In this document: piece by piece, positions 2,519-39,650 of the stretch
How positions within the stretch are numbered: position 1 is the first letter of the stretch
Layout: each line of letters begins with the position of its first letter
Source of the DNA: Nitrospirota bacterium
Lineage (GTDB): Bacteria > Nitrospirota > Thermodesulfovibrionia > Thermodesulfovibrionales > SM23-35
NCBI GenBank assembly: GCA_040756135.1
Contig: JBFLZS010000007.1
Coordinates: forward strand, 3,072-67,071
Length of the DNA: 64,000 nt
Direction of reading: 5' to 3'
Made by a program: the position numbers and the translations under genes
Notes under the pieces: generated by a model
What the model was told of the DNA's origin: nothing
Seen by the model: only the letters and a program-made list of their open reading frames with translations
The model's database searches: none

Positions 2519-3769
2519 TTAAAATCCGAAATCCTTCAAAAGGTCATCAACGTCAGCCTGCGATACTTTCTCGTGAATTAATACCTCCGTCTTGCCATGT
2601 TCAATCTTGACGCCGAAGGTTGTTACCAATCTCACGAGCTCTTCTTCTATATCTCCCACAAGTTTGATGACCCGTTTTATGGTCTGCCCTGTAATGTCCT
2701 GAAAGGATTGAGTCGTGAGTATTTCCGTCAGATCATCCTCGAGTGAATTCTTAAAATTTTTAAGATAATTTACTGAATCTGCCGGCTCTTTTATATTTCT
2801 TATATGTGAGGAAATTTCATCCATACTCAGTATATATTTTTCGACTATCCCTAACGTCTTGTTTGCGGCCTCTTCTGTCTGATCCATGACAAACTGGAGC
2901 CTGTCAATAGCGTTGGGCATTTCCATCATTGCCATATTTTTGAGTTTAGGGTCAATGGCCTCCTTAAAACTTTTAATGGAGTCGTGAAGCTTTCTTGTAA
3001 TCTTACCCACCTCCTTAAAGAGGTCGCCCTGTCCTTTTTTGATGATATGCTGAATGGCATCGTCCGCTTTTTCATAATCCTGGACTGATAAGGCATCAAT
3101 AAAGTTGACGATGTCGTCAAATATTAGGTATCTGGGGTCGTTAGAGTCTATTCCCCTTTGTTCAAAAAAAGTCTTCGTATCGTATAGCTCCGTTACCTTC
3201 ATTTCTCCAGCCATTGTCTGAACTGTCTTTTCCACTTCAACCTTATCACCCCTTTCCTGAATATCAACAACAAAATCCTCAAAAAGACTCATATCATCGA
3301 GGGGGAGGAGTTTTTTTGTATCAAGAAGGACAACAAGTCTGTCAGGGAGTTTAGCAACCCCCTTGACCTGCTCCACATGGCCGTTTAAGAAACTTTCAGG
3401 AGGTTCTATGGATGATTCTTCTATGTTGATGACGCCGGTGATTCCGTCAACAAAAATGCCGAAGGTTATTTTTCCTGCGGCAATGACGATCACTTTATTA
3501 CTTTCAAATCCCCCCTCGCTCCCCTTTGACCCCTCTTTGTCCCTCTTTAGTAAGGGGGGAATTAAAGGGGGGTTGGGAGGATTATTTAAATTTACGAGCT
3601 TCTTTAGATTGACTATAGGGATGATGTTTCCTCTGATGTTTGTGATTCCCTCTATATATGGTGGAGATTGGGGCATTCTGGTTATGGAAGGTAAATTAAT
3701 TATTTCACGAACCTTCAGTATAGGGATCGTGTATTCATTACTATTAAGATTAAATCCAATATATTGCAT
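2519..3769 (-). CDS. CheW-CheZ fusion protein (coupling domain plus CheY-P phosphatase domain)
   Basis: N-terminus is CheW-like (YIGFNLNSNEYTIPILKVREI..IEGITNIRGNIIPIVNL..VVLLDTKKLL). C-terminus is CheZ-like (SFQDITGQTIKRVI and terminal SQADVDDLLKDFGF). Start placed at the ATG at 3769, preceded by GGAGGA; the ORF track offers 3784. Confidence 0.85.
   Translation of the reverse strand: MQYIGFNLNSNEYTIPILKVREIINLPSITRMPQSPPYIEGITNIRGNIIPIVNLKKLVNLNNPPNPPLIPPLLKRDKEGSKGSEGGFESNKVIVIAAGKITFGIFVDGITGVINIEESSIEPPESFLNGHVEQVKGVAKLPDRLVVLLDTKKLLPLDDMSLFEDFVVDIQERGDKVEVEKTVQTMAGEMKVTELYDTKTFFEQRGIDSNDPRYLIFDDIVNFIDALSVQDYEKADDAIQHIIKKGQGDLFKEVGKITRKLHDSIKSFKEAIDPKLKNMAMMEMPNAIDRLQFVMDQTEEAANKTLGIVEKYILSMDEISSHIRNIKEPADSVNYLKNFKNSLEDDLTEILTTQSFQDITGQTIKRVIKLVGDIEEELVRLVTTFGVKIEHGKTEVLIHEKVSQADVDDLLKDFGF
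3506..3583. repeat. Family B-prime palindromic element inserted in frame in the CheW domain
   Basis: aaatcccccctcgctcccctttgacccctctttgtccctctttagtaaggggggaattaaaggggggttgggaggatt, translated as NNPPNPPLIPPLLKRDKEGSKGSEGGFES. Confidence 0.8.
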
Positions 3770-3784
3770 ATATCCTCCTTTCAA

Positions 3785-3940
3785 AATAGTGTCTGTCCAT
3801 AAACTAATGTGTACATTCCGTCAGTCTCCCTGCTTACAACCTGCAGGGACAGGCTTAAGCCGGAATCCAGTGTTTTCAACAGGTTCTGGATTCCTGCCTA
3901 CGCAGGAATGACAAAAAACCTGACTTTATGGACAGACTCT
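3785..3940. mobile_element. Family A MITE-like element, full length
   Basis: Outer termini aatagtgtctgtccataaac and ctttatggacagactct flank two hairpin modules ending in ggaatccag and ctggattcc..ggaatgac. Confidence 0.75.
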
Positions 3941-4047: not shown

Positions 4048-4060
4048 CAAAAATGATCAA

Positions 4061-4162
4061 ATAATAACCAATAACCAATTTCCAATAACCAAACTTTTTT
4101 GGAATTTGGTGTTTGGTTATTGAGATTTATTTGGATTTTGGAATTTGGTCATTGGTTATTTT
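4061..4162. repeat. Short-period (about 7 nt) hairpin repeat, family D
   Basis: aataaccaataaccaatttccaataaccaaac, then a T run, then ggaatttggtgtttggttattgag, followed by further ttggattttggaatttggtcattggttatt. Confidence 0.7.
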
Positions 4163-4173
4163 GTTATTTCTAT

Positions 4174-5844
4174 TCATTTCCTTACTCCGAGCACATTCCT
4201 CGATACCCCTGCAAGGTCGAGTATAAGAACAACCTTCCCATCACCCGTGATGGTGGCGCCAAGCACACAGGATGAATCTGTATCTATTCCCTCTACGGCC
4301 TTTATAACAATTTCCTCCTGACCCAAAAGCTCATCCACTGCAACGCAAAACTTTTTTCCCCCGATAGAGATGACAACGACGTATCTGTGCTGATAATCAG
4401 TCAGTCTGCCATTTCCAAGAATATCGGATAGCTCAAATATTGGGAGGACATTCCCCCTGATGACCAGAACCTTCTGGCCTACCACATCAGTAATATCTTT
4501 TTTTGAGACTTTAAGTGTTTCTACAACTGATGTAAGTGGTATAGCATAATGAGAGCTACCTGCACGCACCATAAGGGCCTGAATTATTGCCAGGGTAAGG
4601 GGTATGCTTATCCTGAATGTGGTTCCAATATCTTTTTTGGTTGTTATCTCGGCATAACCGTTGAGTTTTGATATATTTGTTTTCACAACATCCATCCCAA
4701 CCCCGCGGCCACTAAGTTCGGTAGCCACCTCAGCAGTGGAAAATCCCGGTAAGAATATGAGATTTGTTGCCGCCTCATCCGTCATGTTCATGGCTTCATC
4801 TTCTGTTATCAATCCCTTTTCACTGGCCTTTCTTTTAACCCGTTCCACATCTATTCCCCTGCCGTCGTCAGATACCTCAATTACAATCTGATTGCCTTTC
4901 TGGTAAGCGCTTATAGAAATGATGCCCTTTTCAGGTTTTCCTTTTGAACGCCTCTCTTGCATTGGCTCGATAGCATGATCAACGGCATTTCTTATAATGT
5001 GCACAAGGGGGTCTCCTATATGTTCAATCACGGACTTATCAACTTCTGTATCTTCACCGGATATCCTGAGGTCCACATCCTTCCCCAGGTTGCCGGATAT
5101 ATCTCTTACGAGGCGGGGAAACTTGCTGAAGACCTTCTGTATGGGCTGCATACGTATCCTCATAACAGCAAGCTGCATATCAGAGGTAACGAGGTCGAGG
5201 AAAGAAACAGTTTCAAAGAGGCTTTCGATGTAATGGTCTCCGGAATATTTCATTTCGAGATAATTCATGATATTTAGAAGTCTGTTTCTTATTAAAACAA
5301 CTTCACCTGTCAGGTCCATAACCTTATCAATTCTGTTTATGTCAACCCTGAGGGTTTGACCTGGTGACGAGTGACGAGTGACGAGTGAGGAGTCTTTTTC
5401 ACTTCTATCTTCTGATTCTTTTTTGACTTCTGGTTCCTGGTTCCTGACTTCTGACTCCTGAGATTTGAGTGCTATATCAAGTTCTTTCAAAAGAGGCGAA
5501 ATGTCTTCTTCTTTTCCATCCTTTAGTTTTATATGCTGAAGTAAGAGCCGGAGCAAATCTACGCTCTTTAGAATTACATCCATCAATTTCTTTGTGACTG
5601 AAATTTTGCCGTCTCTAAGTTTCTTCAGAATATTCTCTGCGCCATGCGCAACATCAACTATGGACTGGAAACCGAGGAAACCTGCAGCCCCCTTAACGGT
5701 ATGCATACTTCTGAATATCTCGTTTAAAATATCCTTATCATGACCCTTTGACTCGATCTCAATAAAAAGAGGATCTATCTTATCCAGAGACTCTTCCGCG
5801 TCTGTGATAAATTCTGATATTATCTCTTCCATCTCGTCAGGCAT
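4174..5844 (-). CDS. cheA: Chemotaxis histidine kinase CheA (P1, linker, P3-P4-P5; no obvious P2)
   Basis: Hpt motif SMHTVKGAAGFLGF; HATPase motifs HIIRNAVDHAIE, DDGRGID, GRGVGMDVV; C-terminal CheW-like domain. Confidence 0.95.
   Translation of the reverse strand: MPDEMEEIISEFITDAEESLDKIDPLFIEIESKGHDKDILNEIFRSMHTVKGAAGFLGFQSIVDVAHGAENILKKLRDGKISVTKKLMDVILKSVDLLRLLLQHIKLKDGKEEDISPLLKELDIALKSQESEVRNQEPEVKKESEDRSEKDSSLVTRHSSPGQTLRVDINRIDKVMDLTGEVVLIRNRLLNIMNYLEMKYSGDHYIESLFETVSFLDLVTSDMQLAVMRIRMQPIQKVFSKFPRLVRDISGNLGKDVDLRISGEDTEVDKSVIEHIGDPLVHIIRNAVDHAIEPMQERRSKGKPEKGIISISAYQKGNQIVIEVSDDGRGIDVERVKRKASEKGLITEDEAMNMTDEAATNLIFLPGFSTAEVATELSGRGVGMDVVKTNISKLNGYAEITTKKDIGTTFRISIPLTLAIIQALMVRAGSSHYAIPLTSVVETLKVSKKDITDVVGQKVLVIRGNVLPIFELSDILGNGRLTDYQHRYVVVISIGGKKFCVAVDELLGQEEIVIKAVEGIDTDSSCVLGATITGDGKVVLILDLAGVSRNVLGVRK
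5363..5462. repeat. Heptamer-type repeat DNA forming the CheA P1-P3 linker
   Basis: gtgacgagtgacgagtgacgagtgagg ... ttctggttcctggttcctgacttctgactcctga, translated as SQESEVRNQEPEVKKESEDRSEKDSSLVTRHSS. Confidence 0.65.
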
Positions 5845-5860
5845 ATCTCACTCCTTTATA

Positions 5861-5923
5861 GGGTCAAGGGTCATGGGGCAAGGGTCAAGTCAAAGACTTG
5901 ATAAGCCCTTGCCCCTTGACCCT
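5861..5923. repeat. Family D heptamer hairpin between cheA and cheY
   Basis: gggtcaagggtcatggggcaagggtcaag tcaaaga cttgataagcccttgccccttgaccct; the arms are largely complementary. Confidence 0.7.
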
Positions 5924-6314
5924 ATTTGTTCAGTTTCTCGAATATCTTATCCATCTTTTCCTTTAAAACCTCTGCTGTAAAGGGCTTCACGACATAATTA
6001 CTGACCCCTGCCTTTATAGCCACAATGACCTTTTCCTTCTCTGCCTCGGCTGTAACCATAAGGAATGGCATATCCTTTAATTCAGGGTCGCTTCGAACTT
6101 TTTTCAGTAGCTCAAGGCCGTCCATGTTCGGCATATTCCAATCAGCTACAACAAACCCAACACCCCCATTTTTTAATTTTGTATATGCCTGAGCGCCATC
6201 CTCTGCTTCTTCGAAGTTTTCATATCCCAGTTGTTTGTATATATTTCTTATAATCCTTCTCATTGTTGGAAAATCATCAACAATGAGGATCTTCATTTTG
6301 TAGTCAGGCATCAT
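5922..6314 (-). CDS. cheY: Chemotaxis response regulator CheY
   Basis: Single receiver domain with [22 protein letters not shown] and VVKPF. The start may be the second ATG (6311), given GGAGG spacing. Confidence 0.9.
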
Positions 6315-9789: not shown

Positions 9790-9866
9790 AAAATCTCCCC
9801 TCGCCCCTCTTTGCCAAAGAGGGGTATGATTCCTCCCTTTGGCAAAGGGAGGTTAGGAGGGATTTT
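9790..9866. repeat. Family B double-hairpin element (core)
   Basis: aaaatctcccctcgcccctctttgccaaagaggggtatgattcctccctttggcaaagggaggttaggagggatttt. Flanked by imperfect outer inverted repeats (cataattgaatagacatt ... atgtgcatactataatgag). Confidence 0.85.
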
Positions 9867-9913: not shown

Positions 9914-9982
9914 GTCATTGCCCGACTTGATCGGGCAATCCAGAGAAAGGTTCTGGATTATCCGGTCAAGCCGGATAATGAC
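9914..9982. repeat. Family A element (inner twin hairpins only)
   Basis: gtcattgcccgacttgatcgggcaatccag agaaaggtt ctggattatccggtcaagccggataatgac. Confidence 0.75.
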
Positions 9983-10764: not shown

Positions 10765-10841
10765 AAAATCTCCCCTCACCCCTCTTTGCCAAAGAGGGGT
10801 ATGATTCCTCCCTTTGGCAAAGGGAGGTTAGGAGGGATTTT
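10765..10841. repeat. Family B double-hairpin element (core)
   Basis: Near-identical to 9790-9866 by eye. Occupies the flhG-fliA spacer. Confidence 0.85.
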
Positions 10842-10895
10842 CTGATAATTATGTGCATACTATTTCGAGACTGCTAATAGATTGAGCTCCTCCGA

Positions 10896-11744
10896 TTATG
10901 CCTGTTTCATTTTCTGTAACGAACTGGCAGATAAGAGATTGCCTAAGAAAAACTGCAAGGTCCCTTTCACTTTGCTGTTTGAGTCAGAGAACTTTGATGC
11001 GATCTCAGTAAACTTCTGAGACGCGATACTGTTAGGATAGATCTCAACAATGGCCCTCTGCTCCTTTACTGCCCTCTGTATAGAACTGTCGAAGGGGATA
11101 CATCCTATGTAATCAAGAGATATGTTTAAAAATTTCTCGGCAACTATTGAGAGTCTTCTGAAAACCTCAAATCCTTCCTCTGAACTCTTGACAAAATTCA
11201 CGAGGACACGGAATTCCTTTTCCTGATATCTGGTAAAAAGAACCTTGATCAGGGCATAAGCATCTGTGATTGCTGTGGGTTCAGGAGATGTTACTACCAC
11301 TATCTCCTGCGCAGCGATACAGAAAAAAGCTACATTCTCAGATATGCCTGCAGCGGTGTCTATGATAAGAAAATCGATGTCGTCATCATATAAATCAAAG
11401 CCCTCCAGCAATCTCAGCCTCTGAAACTCATCGAGAGATGTTAATTCCTGAACGCCTGAACTGGCTGGCAGTATCTTTATCCCGCGTGGACCTTCAATAA
11501 CAATATCCTTTAATGTCATCTTTCCGTCTAACACATGCTTGATGTTGTAACGCGGTGTTAATTGAAATAAAATATCTATATTGCTTAATCCAAGGTCAGC
11601 GTCTAAAATCATTACATTCTTGCCGCTCTTTCTTATTTCCAGGGCAATGTTTGCTGCGATGTTGGTCTTTCCTACACCACCCTTTCCACTTGTAATAGCT
11701 ATCGTCCTTACGCACTTTGTCTTCTGCCGGTTCTCGATCAACAT
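10896..11744 (-). CDS. flhG: MinD/ParA-type ATPase FlhG (YlxH)
   Basis: Deviant Walker A IAITSGKGGVGKT. Positioned directly after flhF, with a 7-nt overlap. Confidence 0.88.
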   Translation of the reverse strand: MLIENRQKTKCVRTIAITSGKGGVGKTNIAANIALEIRKSGKNVMILDADLGLSNIDILFQLTPRYNIKHVLDGKMTLKDIVIEGPRGIKILPASSGVQELTSLDEFQRLRLLEGFDLYDDDIDFLIIDTAAGISENVAFFCIAAQEIVVVTSPEPTAITDAYALIKVLFTRYQEKEFRVLVNFVKSSEEGFEVFRRLSIVAEKFLNISLDYIGCIPFDSSIQRAVKEQRAIVEIYPNSIASQKFTEIASKFSDSNSKVKGTLQFFLGNLLSASSLQKMKQA

Positions 11745-12868
11745 GTATAGCTCCTTTTTCTTAAAATGAGACTGGTGAGTTTATCCGGTGTAATAAATTC
11801 AATGTCACCGGGAACCTTCTGGCCGGTTGTTACAAATGCAACCGGTTTCTGATATATGAGGAGCAGGTTATAAAGAGTTCCATACCGTACAGCTTCATCA
11901 ACTTTTGTAAAGGCAATATAGTCAACAGGCAACATTCTATAAAACCTGTATGCATCTATCATGAATTCATCATCAGAACTCGCACTCATGAGGAGATGAA
12001 GCTCTACGGGAACCTTTATCTGACATGCCGACAGTATCTCATTAATATATGACTCATCTCGCGGGTTTCTTCCGGTGGTATCAATAAAAATAATATCCCT
12101 GCTTTCCGAGTATCGTATGAGACACTCTTCAAGTTCTTTTCCTTGAGAAACGATCGAAAGCGGTATGCCCATAATCCTCGAATAGATCCGCACCTGTTCA
12201 ACAGCTCCTATCCTGTAAGTGTCAAGGTTGACCATCGCTGCTTTTTTGCCCTCTTGAATTGCAAGGGCAGAGAGTTTCGCAATGGTCGTTGTTTTGCCCA
12301 CGCCTGTTGGACCGATGAGCATAACAGCCTTCTTGTTAGTATTTATTGGCTTCACCTTTATATCATTCGATAGTAATGAAGGAATCTGGCTCAGATCTTT
12401 AGCTTTTTCACACAGACGGAGGGCGAATTCTTCACGTATCGATCTTTTTATGAGAAAATGCAGTATCATTCTTTTTTCAGGAGGTAATGAGAGGTTATAG
12501 CCGGTATTCTTCATGTTTTCTATAATCCCCTTAAGGCTGCCAATCTCATTTTTAATATCATCAACCAGTGTAGAAGAAAGCAGTTTAGAGCTCGAAGTTC
12601 GGAATTCGGAGTTTGCAATCCCCCCTTGCCCTCCTTTTTCAAATCCCCCCTTACCCCCCTTTTCCAAATCCCCCCTTACCCCCCTTTTTAAAGGGGGGAT
12701 GGGGGGATTATATCCTGAGTCATAATCAACCGCTGCAGTGACCTCAACAAAAGGTCTGATACCTCTTTTTTCTTCCGATGATAGTATTATTGCATCCTCA
12801 CTGAGTTCTTTTTTGATTAGGTCAAGGGCATCAGCAAAATTCCTTGCTTTGAATTTCTTAATCTTCAT
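11738..12868 (-). CDS. flhF: SRP-type GTPase FlhF
   Basis: NG-domain motifs LIGPTGVGKTTTIAKL, DTTGRN and FTKVDE. The N-terminal B domain carries a repeat insertion. Confidence 0.9.
   Translation of the reverse strand: MKIKKFKARNFADALDLIKKELSEDAIILSSEEKRGIRPFVEVTAAVDYDSGYNPPIPPLKRGVRGDLEKGGKGGFEKGGQGGIANSEFRTSSSKLLSSTLVDDIKNEIGSLKGIIENMKNTGYNLSLPPEKRMILHFLIKRSIREEFALRLCEKAKDLSQIPSLLSNDIKVKPINTNKKAVMLIGPTGVGKTTTIAKLSALAIQEGKKAAMVNLDTYRIGAVEQVRIYSRIMGIPLSIVSQGKELEECLIRYSESRDIIFIDTTGRNPRDESYINEILSACQIKVPVELHLLMSASSDDEFMIDAYRFYRMLPVDYIAFTKVDEAVRYGTLYNLLLIYQKPVAFVTTGQKVPGDIEFITPDKLTSLILRKRSYTC
12617..12709. repeat. Family B-prime palindromic element (left arm triplicated) in frame in the FlhF B domain
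   Basis: Three copies of aatcccccctt[g/a]cccc..tttt.c, then aaaggggggatggggggatt. Translated as NPPIPPLKRGVRGDLEKGGKGGFEKGGQGGIA. Confidence 0.85.
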
Positions 12869-16698: not shown

Positions 16699-16838
16699 CC
16701 TAAATTGAGCGATTTATTATCTCAATAATGCCACTGAGACAGGCGAGACGCCTGTCCTACGGGTTTGAGGTTTCACCTTTCAAGTAGGACAGCCGTCTCG
16801 GCTGTCCTTGATTTGTCAAAAGAATCGCTCAATTTAGG
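16699..16838. mobile_element. Family F MITE-like element in the fliQ-fliR spacer
   Basis: Perfect 16-bp TIRs cctaaattgagcgatt (16699-16714) and aatcgctcaatttagg (16823-16838). Internal hairpins gacaggcg-aga-cgcctgtc and ggacagccg-tct-cggctgtcc. Confidence 0.85.
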
Positions 16839-22671: not shown

Positions 22672-24594
22672 TCACACAAAAATGCTAACTATACGATTGT
22701 TCATAGAATTGATAGGTAAATGTTTGTTTTCATCTGTTACACAAAAAACTTTCATATTTTTTTCCTCATCTTTAAATTCCTTTCTTCTGTCTTTCAGATG
22801 AACAGAAAAGCTACCGATGTTTATCCCCTCATTATGAAGGGCGTTGACGATACTATGTATGTTCCTTTCGATAAGTTCTTTGCCGACAGTTTCCGACACG
22901 CCTATTTTTGCATTTACCAAACCTCTGTCCAGACTCAGGTGGATGTCAAGCTTTCCAATCCCATCAGGCTCAAGAGAAACCTCTATGGCAGTGCCGTCTC
23001 GCCTGGTTATTATGAATGTATTTCGAAATAAGCGATTAGTCTCAGGTGTCTCTGTTGCATGATGAACAATCTTCGCACTGTCCTGATTGGTAACGTTCTC
23101 AGGAGAAGACAATGCACCTGCATGGCTGTCTATGATTTCAAGTGTTTTACCATATTGGTCATATTTCATATTTTTACTCTGTCTACCTTGTGCAGATGTC
23201 TCGCTGAGAAAAGCCATTTCGTTCCGGGTTGATTTTATGGAAGACTCAGATAACAGAGATTTGACATCGCAATCTGAAGTCGACTTTGGAATTTGCTCCG
23301 AAAATAGGGCAGGCATCTTGCCTGACAAACGAGGCAGGATGCCCCGGCTATTTTCATATTCCTTTGTGCCGACTCGTCGGCATGAGGGTTTAGGTTGCAT
23401 TACAAACAGATTGCTTTTTGCATCAGCAGGAGTTGATTCATTGCCATCTCCTGTTGCCTGGGTGTGATGAAATACTGATGCATCAGGCTCTTTTGTAAGA
23501 GAGAACGTTTGAATAAAATCCGCTTTGCCCCCCACCACAGAAAGCCACGCCCCGCACCAAAAACTTTTGGTGTCGGGGCACGGGTGTAAAGCCGTGATGC
23601 GGGGTTCATTTTGAAAGACCATATCTGACTGCATTTGAGAACTTATGGAAGATATCTGGACAAATAGGCTCTTTAATAATGATTCTTCTGTTTCACTATC
23701 AACACCCTCTGCTGACAAACCGGCAAATAGCTTGCCTATGTCAAAATGAATAGCAGGAGGTTCCTCCGTAAGAGCGGCACCTGCGTCTTTCTTGATATTT
23801 AGAAGGTCAGGTTGAACTTGCTGCTCATCCTGGGGTATCAGGTATTGTTCCCCATATCCTTTCAATCCTGAGAGTATCTGATCCGCTGACAAACCGGCAA
23901 ATAGCTTGCCTATGTCAAAATGAATAACGGGGGTTTTCTCCGTAAGATCAGCATTTGCATCCTTCTTGATATTACTACAGCGAATCTTTTCGTCATGCCC
24001 GAAGTCCTTAATCGGCCATCCACCCTTCGGCAGGCCTGTCCTGAGCAATGTGTCATCCTTCGACAAGCTCAGGATGACACAAGCCGAAGGGCTCAGGGTG
24101 ACAATTGTCATGGTGAGCTTGTCGAACCATGGATTCCGGGTCAAGCCCGAAATGACAGATGAAGGAGATGATTTCAGGTATTTTATTGAAAAGTTCGCTG
24201 TAGTGTTATTTAGAAAATCAGATTGAATTTGCTGCTCATCCTGGGGTATCAGGTATTGTTCCCTATATCCTTTCAATCCTGAGAGTATCTGATCCGCTGA
24301 TAAACCGGCAAGTAGCTTGCATATGTCAAAATGAACAACAGTAGGTTTCTCCGCAAGATCAGCACGAGAAAAAAGATTACTGAGCAGAGGTGATTGGATC
24401 TTTGTACTATCTTCAGTGGCTTGCTGGTTTTTCTGAACAGGTATAGATTGATGGTCCGGGAACATGTTCAATATGCTGCCCATGAGATCATAAAAAAAAT
24501 TATCTTCGGATTGAGCCTTTTCTGATGCGGAGGGTTTTAAGAGTTGAGAAATCACATTGGAGGTATCCAGACCATTTGTTGTTACTTCATTCAT
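22672..24594 (-). CDS. fliK: Flagellar hook-length control protein FliK, unusually long
   Basis: C-terminal Flg_hook-type domain (EVSLEPDGIGKLDIHLSLDRGLVNAKIGVSETVGKELIERNIHSIVNAL). Positioned between the ylxF-like gene and flgD. Start placed at MNEVTT (24594); the ORF track offers 24645. Confidence 0.8.
   Translation of the reverse strand: MNEVTTNGLDTSNVISQLLKPSASEKAQSEDNFFYDLMGSILNMFPDHQSIPVQKNQQATEDSTKIQSPLLSNLFSRADLAEKPTVVHFDICKLLAGLSADQILSGLKGYREQYLIPQDEQQIQSDFLNNTTANFSIKYLKSSPSSVISGLTRNPWFDKLTMTIVTLSPSACVILSLSKDDTLLRTGLPKGGWPIKDFGHDEKIRCSNIKKDANADLTEKTPVIHFDIGKLFAGLSADQILSGLKGYGEQYLIPQDEQQVQPDLLNIKKDAGAALTEEPPAIHFDIGKLFAGLSAEGVDSETEESLLKSLFVQISSISSQMQSDMVFQNEPRITALHPCPDTKSFWCGAWLSVVGGKADFIQTFSLTKEPDASVFHHTQATGDGNESTPADAKSNLFVMQPKPSCRRVGTKEYENSRGILPRLSGKMPALFSEQIPKSTSDCDVKSLLSESSIKSTRNEMAFLSETSAQGRQSKNMKYDQYGKTLEIIDSHAGALSSPENVTNQDSAKIVHHATETPETNRLFRNTFIITRRDGTAIEVSLEPDGIGKLDIHLSLDRGLVNAKIGVSETVGKELIERNIHSIVNALHNEGINIGSFSVHLKDRRKEFKDEEKNMKVFCVTDENKHLPINSMNNRIVSIFV
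23709..24365. repeat. About 165-bp coding repeat present in 2.5 copies inside fliK
   Basis: Copies at 23709-23798 (partial), 23812-23972 and 24228-24365. Each encodes (V/I)HFDIGKLFAGLSADQILSGLKGY.EQYLIPQDEQQ. Confidence 0.85.
23973..24225. repeat. Composite family A/C repeat DNA inserted in frame between fliK repeat copies
   Basis: Contains gtcatccttcgacaagctcaggatgac, ttgtcatggtgagcttgtcgaacc and ggattccgggtcaagcccgaaatgac modules. Translated as ..SPSACVILSLSKDDTLLRTGLPKGGWPIKDFGHDEK.. Confidence 0.75.
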
Positions 24595-24657
24595 GACATT
24601 CGCATAACAATAAATATGCCAGGAGTGAAATTGTAGGAATATCAAGGCTGAATGGTA

Positions 24658-30365: not shown

Positions 30366-30677
30366 TTATACCTGCATCCTCATGATCTCTTCATAGGCGC
30401 TCAACAGCTTATTCCTCACCTCAACCATCAAATTAAAAGACATGTCTGCTTTCTCCATAGCTATAATCGCCTGGGTTATATCACCGCCTGACGCCAATTC
30501 TTTGACAGCTTTTTCAGCATCGTTCTGCACCAGATAAATCTTACCAACGGCCTCATGCAATATATCGTCAAATCCCTGAGCTGAAGCCTTGCTGTCAGCC
30601 TTAACCTGTAATCCCCCCTCGCCCCCCTTTAGTAAAGGGGGGGTGGTGGGATTATTCGCAATCCTCATATCAGACAT
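30366..30677 (-). CDS. fliE: Flagellar hook-basal body protein FliE
   Basis: C-terminal AIIAMEKADMSFNLMVEVRNKLLSAYEEIMRMQV. Positioned upstream of fliF. Confidence 0.85.
   Translation of the reverse strand: MSDMRIANNPTTPPLLKGGEGGLQVKADSKASAQGFDDILHEAVGKIYLVQNDAEKAVKELASGGDITQAIIAMEKADMSFNLMVEVRNKLLSAYEEIMRMQV
30610..30653. repeat. Family B-prime 44-bp palindrome in frame near the FliE N-terminus
   Basis: aatcccccctcgcccccctttagtaaagggggggtggtgggatt, translated as NNPTTPPLLKGGEGGLQ. Confidence 0.85.
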
Positions 30678-36379: not shown

Positions 36380-36486
36380 AAAATCTCCCCTCCCCCCTCT
36401 TTGCCAAAGAGGGGTATTACACACCCCTACACCCCTCAAGAGGGGATTATTCCTCCCTTTGGCAAAGGGAGGTTAGGAGGGATTTT
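36380..36486. repeat. Family B element with an extra internal hairpin
   Basis: As in the other copies, plus an inserted acacacccctacacccctcaagaggggatta. Confidence 0.8.
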
Positions 36487-38093: not shown

Positions 38094-38146
38094 TTATTTT
38101 ATGCATGAGACATTAATGCTTTCATAATTGAATAGACATTTACCGG

Positions 38147-38287
38147 AAAATCTCCCCTTGCCCCTCTTTACCAAAGAGGGGTATGGTTCGGCAAGCTCAC
38201 CATGACATTTGTCATCCTGAGCCTGTCGAAGGATGGCAAAGGGAGGCTTCTGCGTGAACTCGGCCGAACGCTCAGGAGAAATTTTCC
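38147..38287. repeat. Family B element interrupted by a family C module
   Basis: aaaatctccccttgcccctctttaccaaagaggggtatggt, then tcggcaagctcaccatgacatttgtcatcctgagcctgtcgaaggatg, then gcaaagggagg... Confidence 0.7.
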
Positions 38288-38387
38288 TATGTGGAAATTT
38301 TTTCCTCATATCTTTGAACATTGCTGTTTGACTCTTAACGAGATATTTCAATATTAACAGACTCATAATTGAATGTACATTTATTAT

Positions 38388-38464
38388 AAAATCTCCCCTG
38401 CCCCCTCTTTGCCAAAGAGGGGCTTTATTCCTCCCTTTGGCAAAGGGAGGTTAGGAGGGATTTT
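38388..38464. repeat. Family B double-hairpin element (core)
   Basis: aaaatctcccctgccccctctttgccaaagaggggctttattcctccctttggcaaagggaggttaggagggatttt. Confidence 0.85.
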
Positions 38465-39605: not shown

Positions 39606-39650
39606 AATCCCCCACTCCCCCCCTTTAGAAAAGGGGGGGAGTGGGGGATT
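39606..39650. repeat. Family B-prime 45-bp palindrome, non-coding copy in the motA-motB spacer
   Basis: aatcccccactcccccctttagaaaagggggggagtgggggatt. Confidence 0.85.

Follow-up and report, generated by a model that had tools for sequence, protein, structure and literature searches.

An in-frame palindromic repeat in the CheW domain of a Nitrospirota CheW-CheZ fusion gene, and the dispersed family to which it belongs

Introduction

In-frame palindromic repeats are a classic case of selfish DNA creating segments of proteins, and nearly all that is known of them comes from Rickettsia. In this study we describe such a repeat in a 64,000-nt stretch of a metagenome-assembled genome (MAG) of a Nitrospirota bacterium (contig JBFLZS010000007.1, positions 3,072 to 67,071; the whole stretch is hereafter called the window, and its G+C content is 39%), where a 78-nt element at 3506–3583 is read in frame within the CheW domain of a gene for a CheW-CheZ fusion protein. 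A first-pass annotation, made from the sequence alone, had taken this element for a palindromic repeat inserted into a loop of CheW and had likened it to the elements of Rickettsia.

Several described systems come close to what is seen at this locus. Rickettsia palindromic elements (RPEs) are A+T-rich. Reported from Rickettsia as RPE-1 to RPE-10, they are palindromes of approximately 100–150 bp which occur between genes and also in frame in unrelated genes (PMC10969869). Repetitive extragenic palindromes (REPs) tagged by GTAG or CGTC are G+C-rich stem-loops of 20–40 nt, found as singles, inverted dimers and arrays, which show no target-site duplication and fall into tag-defined superfamilies across many species; some of them are intragenic and contribute 20–30 extra residues to proteins of Opitutus, Thauera, Xanthomonas and R. 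conorii (Di Nocera et al. 2013, PMC3733652). [quoted passage not shown] Finally, Aklujkar et al. 2009 aligned 20 'class 4' multicopy sequences of Geobacter metallireducens (their Additional file 15), remarked on their likeness to multicopy sequences of many genomes and read them as sites of the regulators IHF/HU (PMC2700814).

The element in the CheW loop

The element makes up exactly 26 whole codons (78 nt, 3583 to 3506 on the minus strand) of the CheW-CheZ gene and contains both arms of a repeat family, inverted relative to each other. The features concerned are the following.

2519–3784, minus strand: CheW-CheZ fusion gene (ORF list; Pfam CheW at residues 7–160, plus CheZ)
3305–3766, minus strand: CheW domain, broken up by the element (PF01584, residues 7–160 of the 421-aa ORF)
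3506–3583, minus strand: in-frame palindromic repeat element coding for NPPNPPLIPPLLKRDKEGSKGSEGGF, composite and partly decayed (arms, absence from orthologues, predicted disorder)
3563–3583, minus strand: terminal arm, 5' end in the mRNA sense, AATCCTCCCAACCCCCCTTT, with three mismatches to the consensus AATCCCCCCNNNCCCCCCTTT
3507–3527, plus strand: opposite terminal arm, AATCCCCCCTCGCTCCCCTTT, with one mismatch to the same consensus
3540–3560, unstranded: inner imperfect hairpin, TCCCTCTTTAGTAAGGGGGGA, an extra half-arm pair (direct reading and fold)

Read in the direction of translation, the codons of the element are AAT CCT CCC AAC CCC CCT TTA ATT CCC CCC TTA CTA AAG AGG GAC AAA GAG GGG TCA AAG GGG AGC GAG GGG GGA TTT. 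Over 21 nt its left arm shares 95% identity with the copy at 30610, and over 22 nt its right arm shares 91% with the copy at 12688; these shared arms bear out the proposal that it belongs to the family of the palindrome at 39606–39650 and is akin to the double-hairpin repeats called family B, both described below. It had been described as a palindromic repeat, and the two inverted arms are indeed there, but it is a composite and decayed 78-nt copy with extra half-arms and not a simple hairpin. Its fold on the plus strand has an energy of −41.7 kcal/mol (z −3.0), and no promoter-like or terminator-like site was found in 3300–3900, a region which spans it.

The host, which the first-pass annotation had described as a CheW domain, does carry that domain according to Pfam but is a fusion gene and not a plain CheW: the ORF at 2519–3784 (minus strand) matches CheW in its N-terminal part (E 6.8e-32) and the CheZ phosphatase domain in its C-terminal part (E 1.1e-34). 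The ATG at 3769 is likely to be the true start and gives a product of 416 aa, to which an NCBI protein of 416 aa (P0001, on a contig of 78,345 nt) is 100% identical. This fusion architecture is common in Nitrospirota and in Thermodesulfovibrionales.

A protein search with the CheW-CheZ product gave 1010 matches at a threshold of E ≤ 0.001. The 120 best of these (P0001–P0120), all with both Pfam domains, were used as the orthologue set, the loop being measured from K56 to V93. The window protein and P0002 (79% identical) have a loop of 36 aa, versus 12–18 aa (mode 14) in the 118 other orthologues, and all orthologues at 63–73% identity are element-free, so that the insert is specific to this lineage, as had been supposed. 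An equivalent proline- and glycine-rich segment in other orthologues, which the first-pass annotation had named as the case that would make it an ancestral linker, does not occur in this set, where PPxPP is found in 0 of the 118. Alignments with CheW structures from the PDB split around the element into two blocks (query residues 2–56 and 90–155 against E. coli CheW residues 18–72 and 85–151), which places it in frame between two conserved CheW segments; the site is the loop formed by E. coli CheW residues 73–84, and solved CheW structures have 12 residues there. Residues have been added at this site as claimed, but the net gain is 22 rather than 26–29, which means that some of the native loop was lost or replaced.

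An AlphaFold2 model computed with the orthologue alignment has confidence values (pLDDT) of 70–82 in the CheW strands, and values below 50 with no secondary structure at residues 66–94. In a Foldseek comparison, the CheW part of the model matches 6S1K_C (E 4.9e-12, TM 0.80) and 2CH4_Y (TM 0.83). The insert is thus predicted to form a loop without order, the rest of the CheW fold being intact, in agreement with the loop position expected of it, and both the profile match to PF01584 and the two-subdomain beta fold identify the host domain as CheW.

The same insert is found outside this MAG. The contig of P0002, from an ENA assembly (L001), has an equal composite 78-nt element at the equal codon, with seven substitutions and 0 stops or frameshifts, and its 5' arm in the mRNA sense is the canonical AATCCCCCCAACCCCCCTTT; a JGI contig (L130) has a matching junction and terminates inside the element. 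The junction is therefore present in three independent assemblies, and because the composite element and its codon position are common to the window, L001 and L130, the comparison demonstrates a single insertion that predates the split between this MAG and the closest relative sampled, the frame having been kept since. Between the window and L001 the ratio of nonsynonymous to synonymous substitution rates (omega) is 0.40 in the insert versus 0.13 in the rest of the CheW domain, values which come from small counts; the higher ratio would fit a relaxed constraint on the insert at the protein level.

The repeat family in the window

The arm consensus given above has the architecture AATCCCCCC-NNN-CCCCCCTTT followed by its inverse complement. 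A fuzzy search of the 64-kb window, with a tolerance of three mismatches to the consensus, found 23 arm matches, which fall into 10 elements; 20 shuffled versions gave no match. Copies come either as a simple palindrome of 45 nt or as a double hairpin of approximately 77–106 nt (family B), whose arms have two mismatches to the consensus arm, and the termini of the elements read (A)AATC...GATT(T). Apart from the CheW element, the copies are as follows.

39606–39650, unstranded: perfect non-coding copy of 45 nt with arms of 21 + 21 nt, motA-motB spacer
201–276, unstranded: family B copy (double-hairpin form of the arms), intergenic
9791–9866, unstranded: family B copy, spacer between fliA and a HEAT-repeat gene
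10766–10842, unstranded: family B copy, flhG-fliA spacer
36381–36486, unstranded: family B copy with an internal insert of 31 nt; the orthologous L131 spacer is without the element
38148–38270, unstranded: family B copy interrupted by a palindrome of another family nested within it (24054–24131 type)
38389–38464, unstranded: family B copy, intergenic
12617–12709, minus strand: FlhF linker element of three tandem arms and one inverted arm, NPPIPPLKRGVRGDLEKGGKGGFEKGGQGGI, in frame (gene 11738–12868)
30606–30660, minus strand: element in the N-terminal region of FliE, NNPTTPPLLKGGEGGLQ, in frame (gene 30366–30677)

The perfect 45-nt copy is free of stops in four of its six frames (two of three on each strand), and the open frames encode NPPxPPFxKGGxGG or IPxxPPLxKGGxGG, that is, hydrophilic and flexible peptides rich in proline and glycine. 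Searches of Pfam and NCBIfam with the encoded peptides gave no family.

The in-frame status of the FlhF and FliE copies had been overlooked in the first-pass annotation. In FlhF, a protein that is 95% identical (P0241; L135, 790–990) has one arm fewer, which amounts to an in-frame difference of 24 nt, and another that is 88% identical (P0242; L134, 10129–10300) is without the family element and has a different, perfect palindrome of 34 nt, CATGGAGGGGCGTATTGCAATACGCCCCTCCATG, in the same linker, a hotspot of palindrome turnover. The FliE element is common to P0122 and P0123, being expanded in the latter, and differs between the window and L131 (10001–10309) by an in-frame indel of 3 nt; most of the other FliE orthologues listed, nearly all of 96 aa, are without it, and in P0126 a segment resembles it and may be a decayed copy. 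In L131, the syntenic 20 kb contain only the FliE copy, and 0 arms were found in the syntenic loci of the remoter relatives L121–L129 (approximately 110 kb, non-redundant). On account of this distribution, the in-frame copies are judged to be old and shared, and the near-identical family B copies in spacers, together with the perfect motA-motB copy, to be recent gains of the lineage. The flhG-fliA spacer, for example, measures 157 nt in the window versus 20 nt in L121.

Further observations concern the surroundings of these copies. The family B copies at 9791–9866, 10766–10842, 36381–36486 and 38389–38464 are 93–99% alike and fill spacers of flagellar and regulatory operons which in relatives are short or of different sequence, and family B copies are extended on one side by some 25 further conserved nt (..ATTGAATGTACATTTATTATAA). 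At 38148–38270 the nested palindrome of the 24054 type reads GGTTCGGCAAGCTCACCATGACA...TGTCATCCTGAGCCTGTCGAAGGATG, and a spurious ORF (38094–38366) runs across both repeats. The FlhF element abuts tandem units of the GGAGTT/CGGAAT type at 12590–12616 (CGGAATTCGGAGTTTGC, read as ANSEFRTSS in FlhF); similar abutting units are seen in several Nitrospirota (e.g., L007 near 2400 and L021 near 2380), which suggests that the element and these units form a larger composite repeat. FliK (22672–24645, minus strand), which has 657 aa in the window versus 424 aa in L131, carries in frame a palindrome of the other family at 24054–24131 (..WFDKLTMTIVTLSPSACVILSLSKDD..) and three tandem repeats of approximately 45 aa (PTVVHFDICKLLAGLSADQILSGLKGY...).

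The CheW-CheZ gene lies between cheB (1465–2517) and cheA (4174–5844) in a chemotaxis and flagellar cluster; a stand-alone cheW gene follows cheB in L121 and there is none in the operon of the window. The ORF at 984–1385 encodes a coiled-coil protein without family assignment. MotA/MotB and a polysaccharide cluster are encoded in the plus-strand half of the window, the minus-strand half being a syntenic flagellar cluster. Other, unrelated inverted repeats of the window are located at 9914–9982 (GTCATTGCCCGACTTGATCGGGCAATCCAGA / TCTGGATTATCCGGTCAAGCCGGATAATGAC, adjoining a family B copy), 16738–16806, 5858–5925, 4058–4133 and 23300–23355, and repeats of the AATAACCAAT type lie between cheA and the CheW-CheZ gene. 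Palindromes of several families thus abound in this genome.

Occurrence in other bacteria and in phages

A scan for the exact 26-base pattern AATCCCCC-N4-CCCCCCTTT-N1-5-AAAGGGGGG, covering one genome for each GTDB species, found it in at least 119 contigs, compared with approximately 0.001 matches expected by chance according to our own estimate. Judged by record titles, and bearing in mind that some MAG assignments may be binning errors, the matches span some 13 phylum-level groups, including Nitrospirota, Nitrospinota, Desulfobacterota, Beta- and Gammaproteobacteria, Methylomirabilota, Binatia, Acidobacteriota, Myxococcota, Deinococcota, Cyanobacteria, Omnitrophota, Bacillota and Poribacteria. 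Isolates are represented as well, namely Lysobacter Root916 and Root690, Iodobacter arcticus, Thiothrix caldifontis, Thiorhodococcus mannitoliphagus, Geomesophilobacter sediminis and Ca. Nitrotoga M5. The family that the first-pass annotation had recognised within this genome is thus not restricted to it, since viral contigs and these phyla carry the pattern.

Among the matches listed, the majority have a 'half' form, consisting of the C-run tail and a hairpin of 9 bp, and 19 of 139 are full palindromes; a second hairpin lies within 70 nt in 29 cases, and 49 matches sit at least 50 codons inside ORFs of at least 150 aa. Comparison with Pfam and the PDB confirmed real host genes that carry the element in frame, encoding KdsB (two copies), threonine synthase, Tex, CcmH, two radical-SAM/DUF2344 proteins with the element at different sites, a protein with an FGE-sulfatase domain, a GH3 hydrolase and a DNA methylase. 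No recurrent gene family was found near the element by all-against-all clustering of the ORFs within 2.5 kb of the 139 matches.

The pattern also occurs in 85 viral stretches of IMG/VR. One of these, IMGVR_UViG_3300035670_001258 (L154/L214; 23.6 kb), is a tailed-phage contig with genes for terminase, portal, protease and major head proteins, in which composite arrays, each made of left arms in repeated copies, then a GGCGGCGAAGCCGCC hairpin at the centre and one right arm, occupy most of the inspected spacers between structural genes.

A search of Rfam at permissive thresholds with the window and six loci gave only chance, microRNA-like matches to the hairpins, and a text search of the literature for the DNA motif of the element, its encoded peptides and the peptides of the second palindrome family returned nothing relevant. 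We propose, tentatively and with more doubt than confidence, that these repeats may constitute an uncharacterised pan-bacterial superfamily with the unit AAATCCCCCC-YNN-CCCCCCTTT-loop-AAAGGGGGG, which would move across replicons and phyla, perhaps by means of tailed phages, with no target duplication or linked transposase, and which would repeatedly overwrite surface loops with peptides of the type (N/I/S)PPxPP(F/L)xKGGxGG(I/F). If true, loops of bacterial proteins would be remodelled by a general route that is defined by sequence and extends beyond Rickettsia.

Discussion

The explanation that we prefer, with a probability of roughly 0.85, is that a short palindromic repeat of a non-autonomous kind inserted into the sequence coding for a surface loop of CheW in the ancestor of this MAG and its closest relative, was tolerated there and has been drifting in frame. 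Tolerance would be due to the length of the element, which is a multiple of three, to its C- and G-runs, which read as Pro-Pro...Gly-Gly in stop-free frames, and to the flexible and hydrophilic nature of the loop. Since the insertion, the element would have been translated as part of CheW-CheZ, its palindrome would have decayed and its amino acids would have changed faster than those of the flanks, with the reading frame kept throughout. Maintenance of the frame is seen in three copies, through seven substitutions in CheW, an indel of 3 nt in FliE and the gain or loss of a 24-nt arm in FlhF.

A number of results weigh against parts of this explanation. In the mRNA sense, the CheW hairpin reaches −34.6 kcal/mol with a z of only −1.75, and 12 of 200 shuffles are equally stable; intact copies of the family fold at z −6.6 (the perfect copy) and −5.8, and the weak fold of the CheW element is in keeping with a decayed copy. 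Between the window and L001, four-fold degenerate sites have changed at 1 of 12 positions in the insert versus 39 of 111 elsewhere (p = 0.10, not significant), which hints at a constraint on the nucleotide sequence; constraint of this kind was considered and rejected, being a trend only and absent from the FliE copy. Neutrality of the insert is an assumption, because only one residue separates the end of the loop from the counterparts of T86, V87 and V88 of E. coli CheW, which are listed among the receptor-interface residues in a 2026 review (PMC13098124), and judging by this alignment it may lie near the receptor groove.

Transposition would be no more than a candidate process, since a convincing target-site duplication was seen at none of the copies inspected in the window and no transposase, including RAYT/Y1, is encoded in its 64 kb. 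The TTATAA found at some family B copies is itself palindromic and is indistinguishable from an extended arm, and candidate empty sites in the L131 spacer and the L134 FlhF linker were set aside for the definition of boundaries, as they are too diverged or hold other elements. An origin from a tRNA, suggested by the resemblance of AAATCC to a T-loop, was likewise rejected, there being 0 tRNA genes in the window and no tRNA-like features in the hairpin. Presence and absence of copies, together with differences in arm number among close relatives, point to a family that is probably mobile.

The mode of insertion also speaks against the simplest form of our explanation, as the net gain repeatedly falls short of the element size: 22 of 26 codons in CheW, 7 of 15 in FliE, 8 codons for a 15-codon element in ThrC of L069 (6295–7389), and 0 for 15 codons in one KdsB copy of L116 (4086–4940, Nitrospinota), where the element aligns gap-free with 15 native residues of H. 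influenzae KdsB. Judged from these alignments, such cases look like partial replacement of a native loop and not like clean insertion. The shortfall could reflect a later loss of native loop codons or, alternatively, an event that replaced sequence, for instance by template switching or microhomology. In CheW itself, the element-encoded GSKGS resembles NGSKGS in the native loop of orthologues, so that some of the supposed insert may be native sequence, or the event may have been guided by microhomology.

That the segment is an ancestral flexible linker of the CheW-CheZ family, lost from other lineages, would agree with the variation of loop length among orthologues (12–18 aa) and with the Gly/Lys-rich character of the native loop itself (NGSKGN), but it is absent from 118 of 120 orthologues, including all of those at 63–73% identity, its DNA bears both arms of a dispersed repeat family, and solved structures have 12 residues at the site; we regard such a history as highly improbable. 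Even less credible is an artefact of assembly or binning, by which a repeat would have joined two CheW halves into a chimera: repeats do break assemblies, and L130 terminates inside the element, but the two halves make up a single CheW domain read in a single frame, and the junctions are the same in the NCBI MAG, in the ENA contig L001, which reads through the element, and in the JGI contig. Both of these explanations are disfavoured because one ancestral event is seen in three independent assemblies. Local replication slippage of C and G runs, building a palindrome-like sequence unrelated to the dispersed element, could be argued from the repeated AAAG(A)GGG units of the CheW copy and from the slippage-like steps in which the arm number of FlhF changes, and is very unlikely given that both ends match the family arms at 91–95% identity, down to the AAT termini and the TTT/AAA flanks of the loop, and that the orthologue DNA at the site is without C-runs that might serve as a seed.

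The most probable of the alternatives, unlikely though we consider it, is that the insert has been co-opted, the loop beside the receptor-binding strand altering the docking of CheW to receptors or CheA or acting as a tether, and that it is kept by selection on the protein or on an RNA or DNA hairpin. The frame has remained intact over 21% amino-acid divergence, the insert is placed directly N-terminal to the T86/V87/V88 equivalents, synonymous changes are fewer in it than in the flanks (synonymous rate dS between the window and L001 0.18 versus 0.68), and the window operon, unlike that of L121, is without a stand-alone CheW. Against this, omega is higher in the insert, the palindrome has decayed, the difference at four-fold sites is not significant, the loop is predicted to be disordered, and the sister in-frame copies vary freely in arm number or give way to another palindrome.

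If insertion of a non-autonomous repeat, with subsequent drift in frame, is the correct explanation, the phenomenon extends to core motility and signalling proteins of free-living Nitrospirota, namely CheW-CheZ, FlhF, FliE and, with a palindrome of another family, FliK. Dated comparisons are on offer in the form of old shared copies alongside recent variants in presence or arm number, and, since a simple pattern suffices to find the family in many phyla and in phages, a much larger data set on the mode of insertion, on the protein sites that accept it and on co-option is within reach. For annotation, it accounts for a common class of odd Pro/Gly-rich loops and for spurious small ORFs reading ..PPFxKGGxGG.. 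in metagenome proteins.

Comparison with known systems

Among the described systems, G-quadruplex heptamer repeats of Xanthomonas and Nostoc (PMC4692102) were considered and rejected as repeats of a different kind, built of tandem GGGNATC units. The class 4 sequences of G. metallireducens share with the window family a C-rich tail (CCCTCACC..) and a C-rich stem, loop and G-rich stem (CCCTCTCCC-nnn-GGGAGAGGG), the corresponding arms of family B being CCCCTCACCCCTCTTT...AAAGAGGGG, but they are without the AAAT terminus and the TTT/AAA flanks of the loop, and they were not read as mobile or coding. Intragenic MITEs have terminal inverted repeats, as does the window family, but they also have a parent insertion sequence (IS), target-site duplications or both and are usually longer than 100 bp; in the window family, no consistent direct repeats were seen at the C-type copies and no IS was found.

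The likeness to REPs and REPINs is closer, as arms of 21 nt occur as singles, inverted pairs and arrays and have no flanking direct repeats. The tag of the window family, however, is AAATC with a C-run tail in place of GTAG or CGTC, and no gene for RAYT or another Y1 transposase lies in the 64-kb window. To our knowledge, near-identical sequence across phyla is atypical of REPs.

With RPEs the family has in common that intergenic and in-frame copies exist side by side, that the encoded peptide is compatible with the fold and that several proteins of one genome are decorated, in-frame copies being found in the window in CheW-CheZ, FlhF and FliE. It differs from them in its size (45–106 nt), its C6/G6 runs, its Pro/Gly-rich peptides, its distribution over approximately 13 phyla and phages and its Nitrospirota host, and by size, make-up and host it falls outside the RPEs, a distinction drawn from published descriptions and not from an alignment of consensus sequences. 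The resemblance to RPEs noted in the first-pass annotation thus holds as an analogy of behaviour and not as membership. The family is akin to the RPEs and the intragenic REPs in its behaviour, and is a member of neither.

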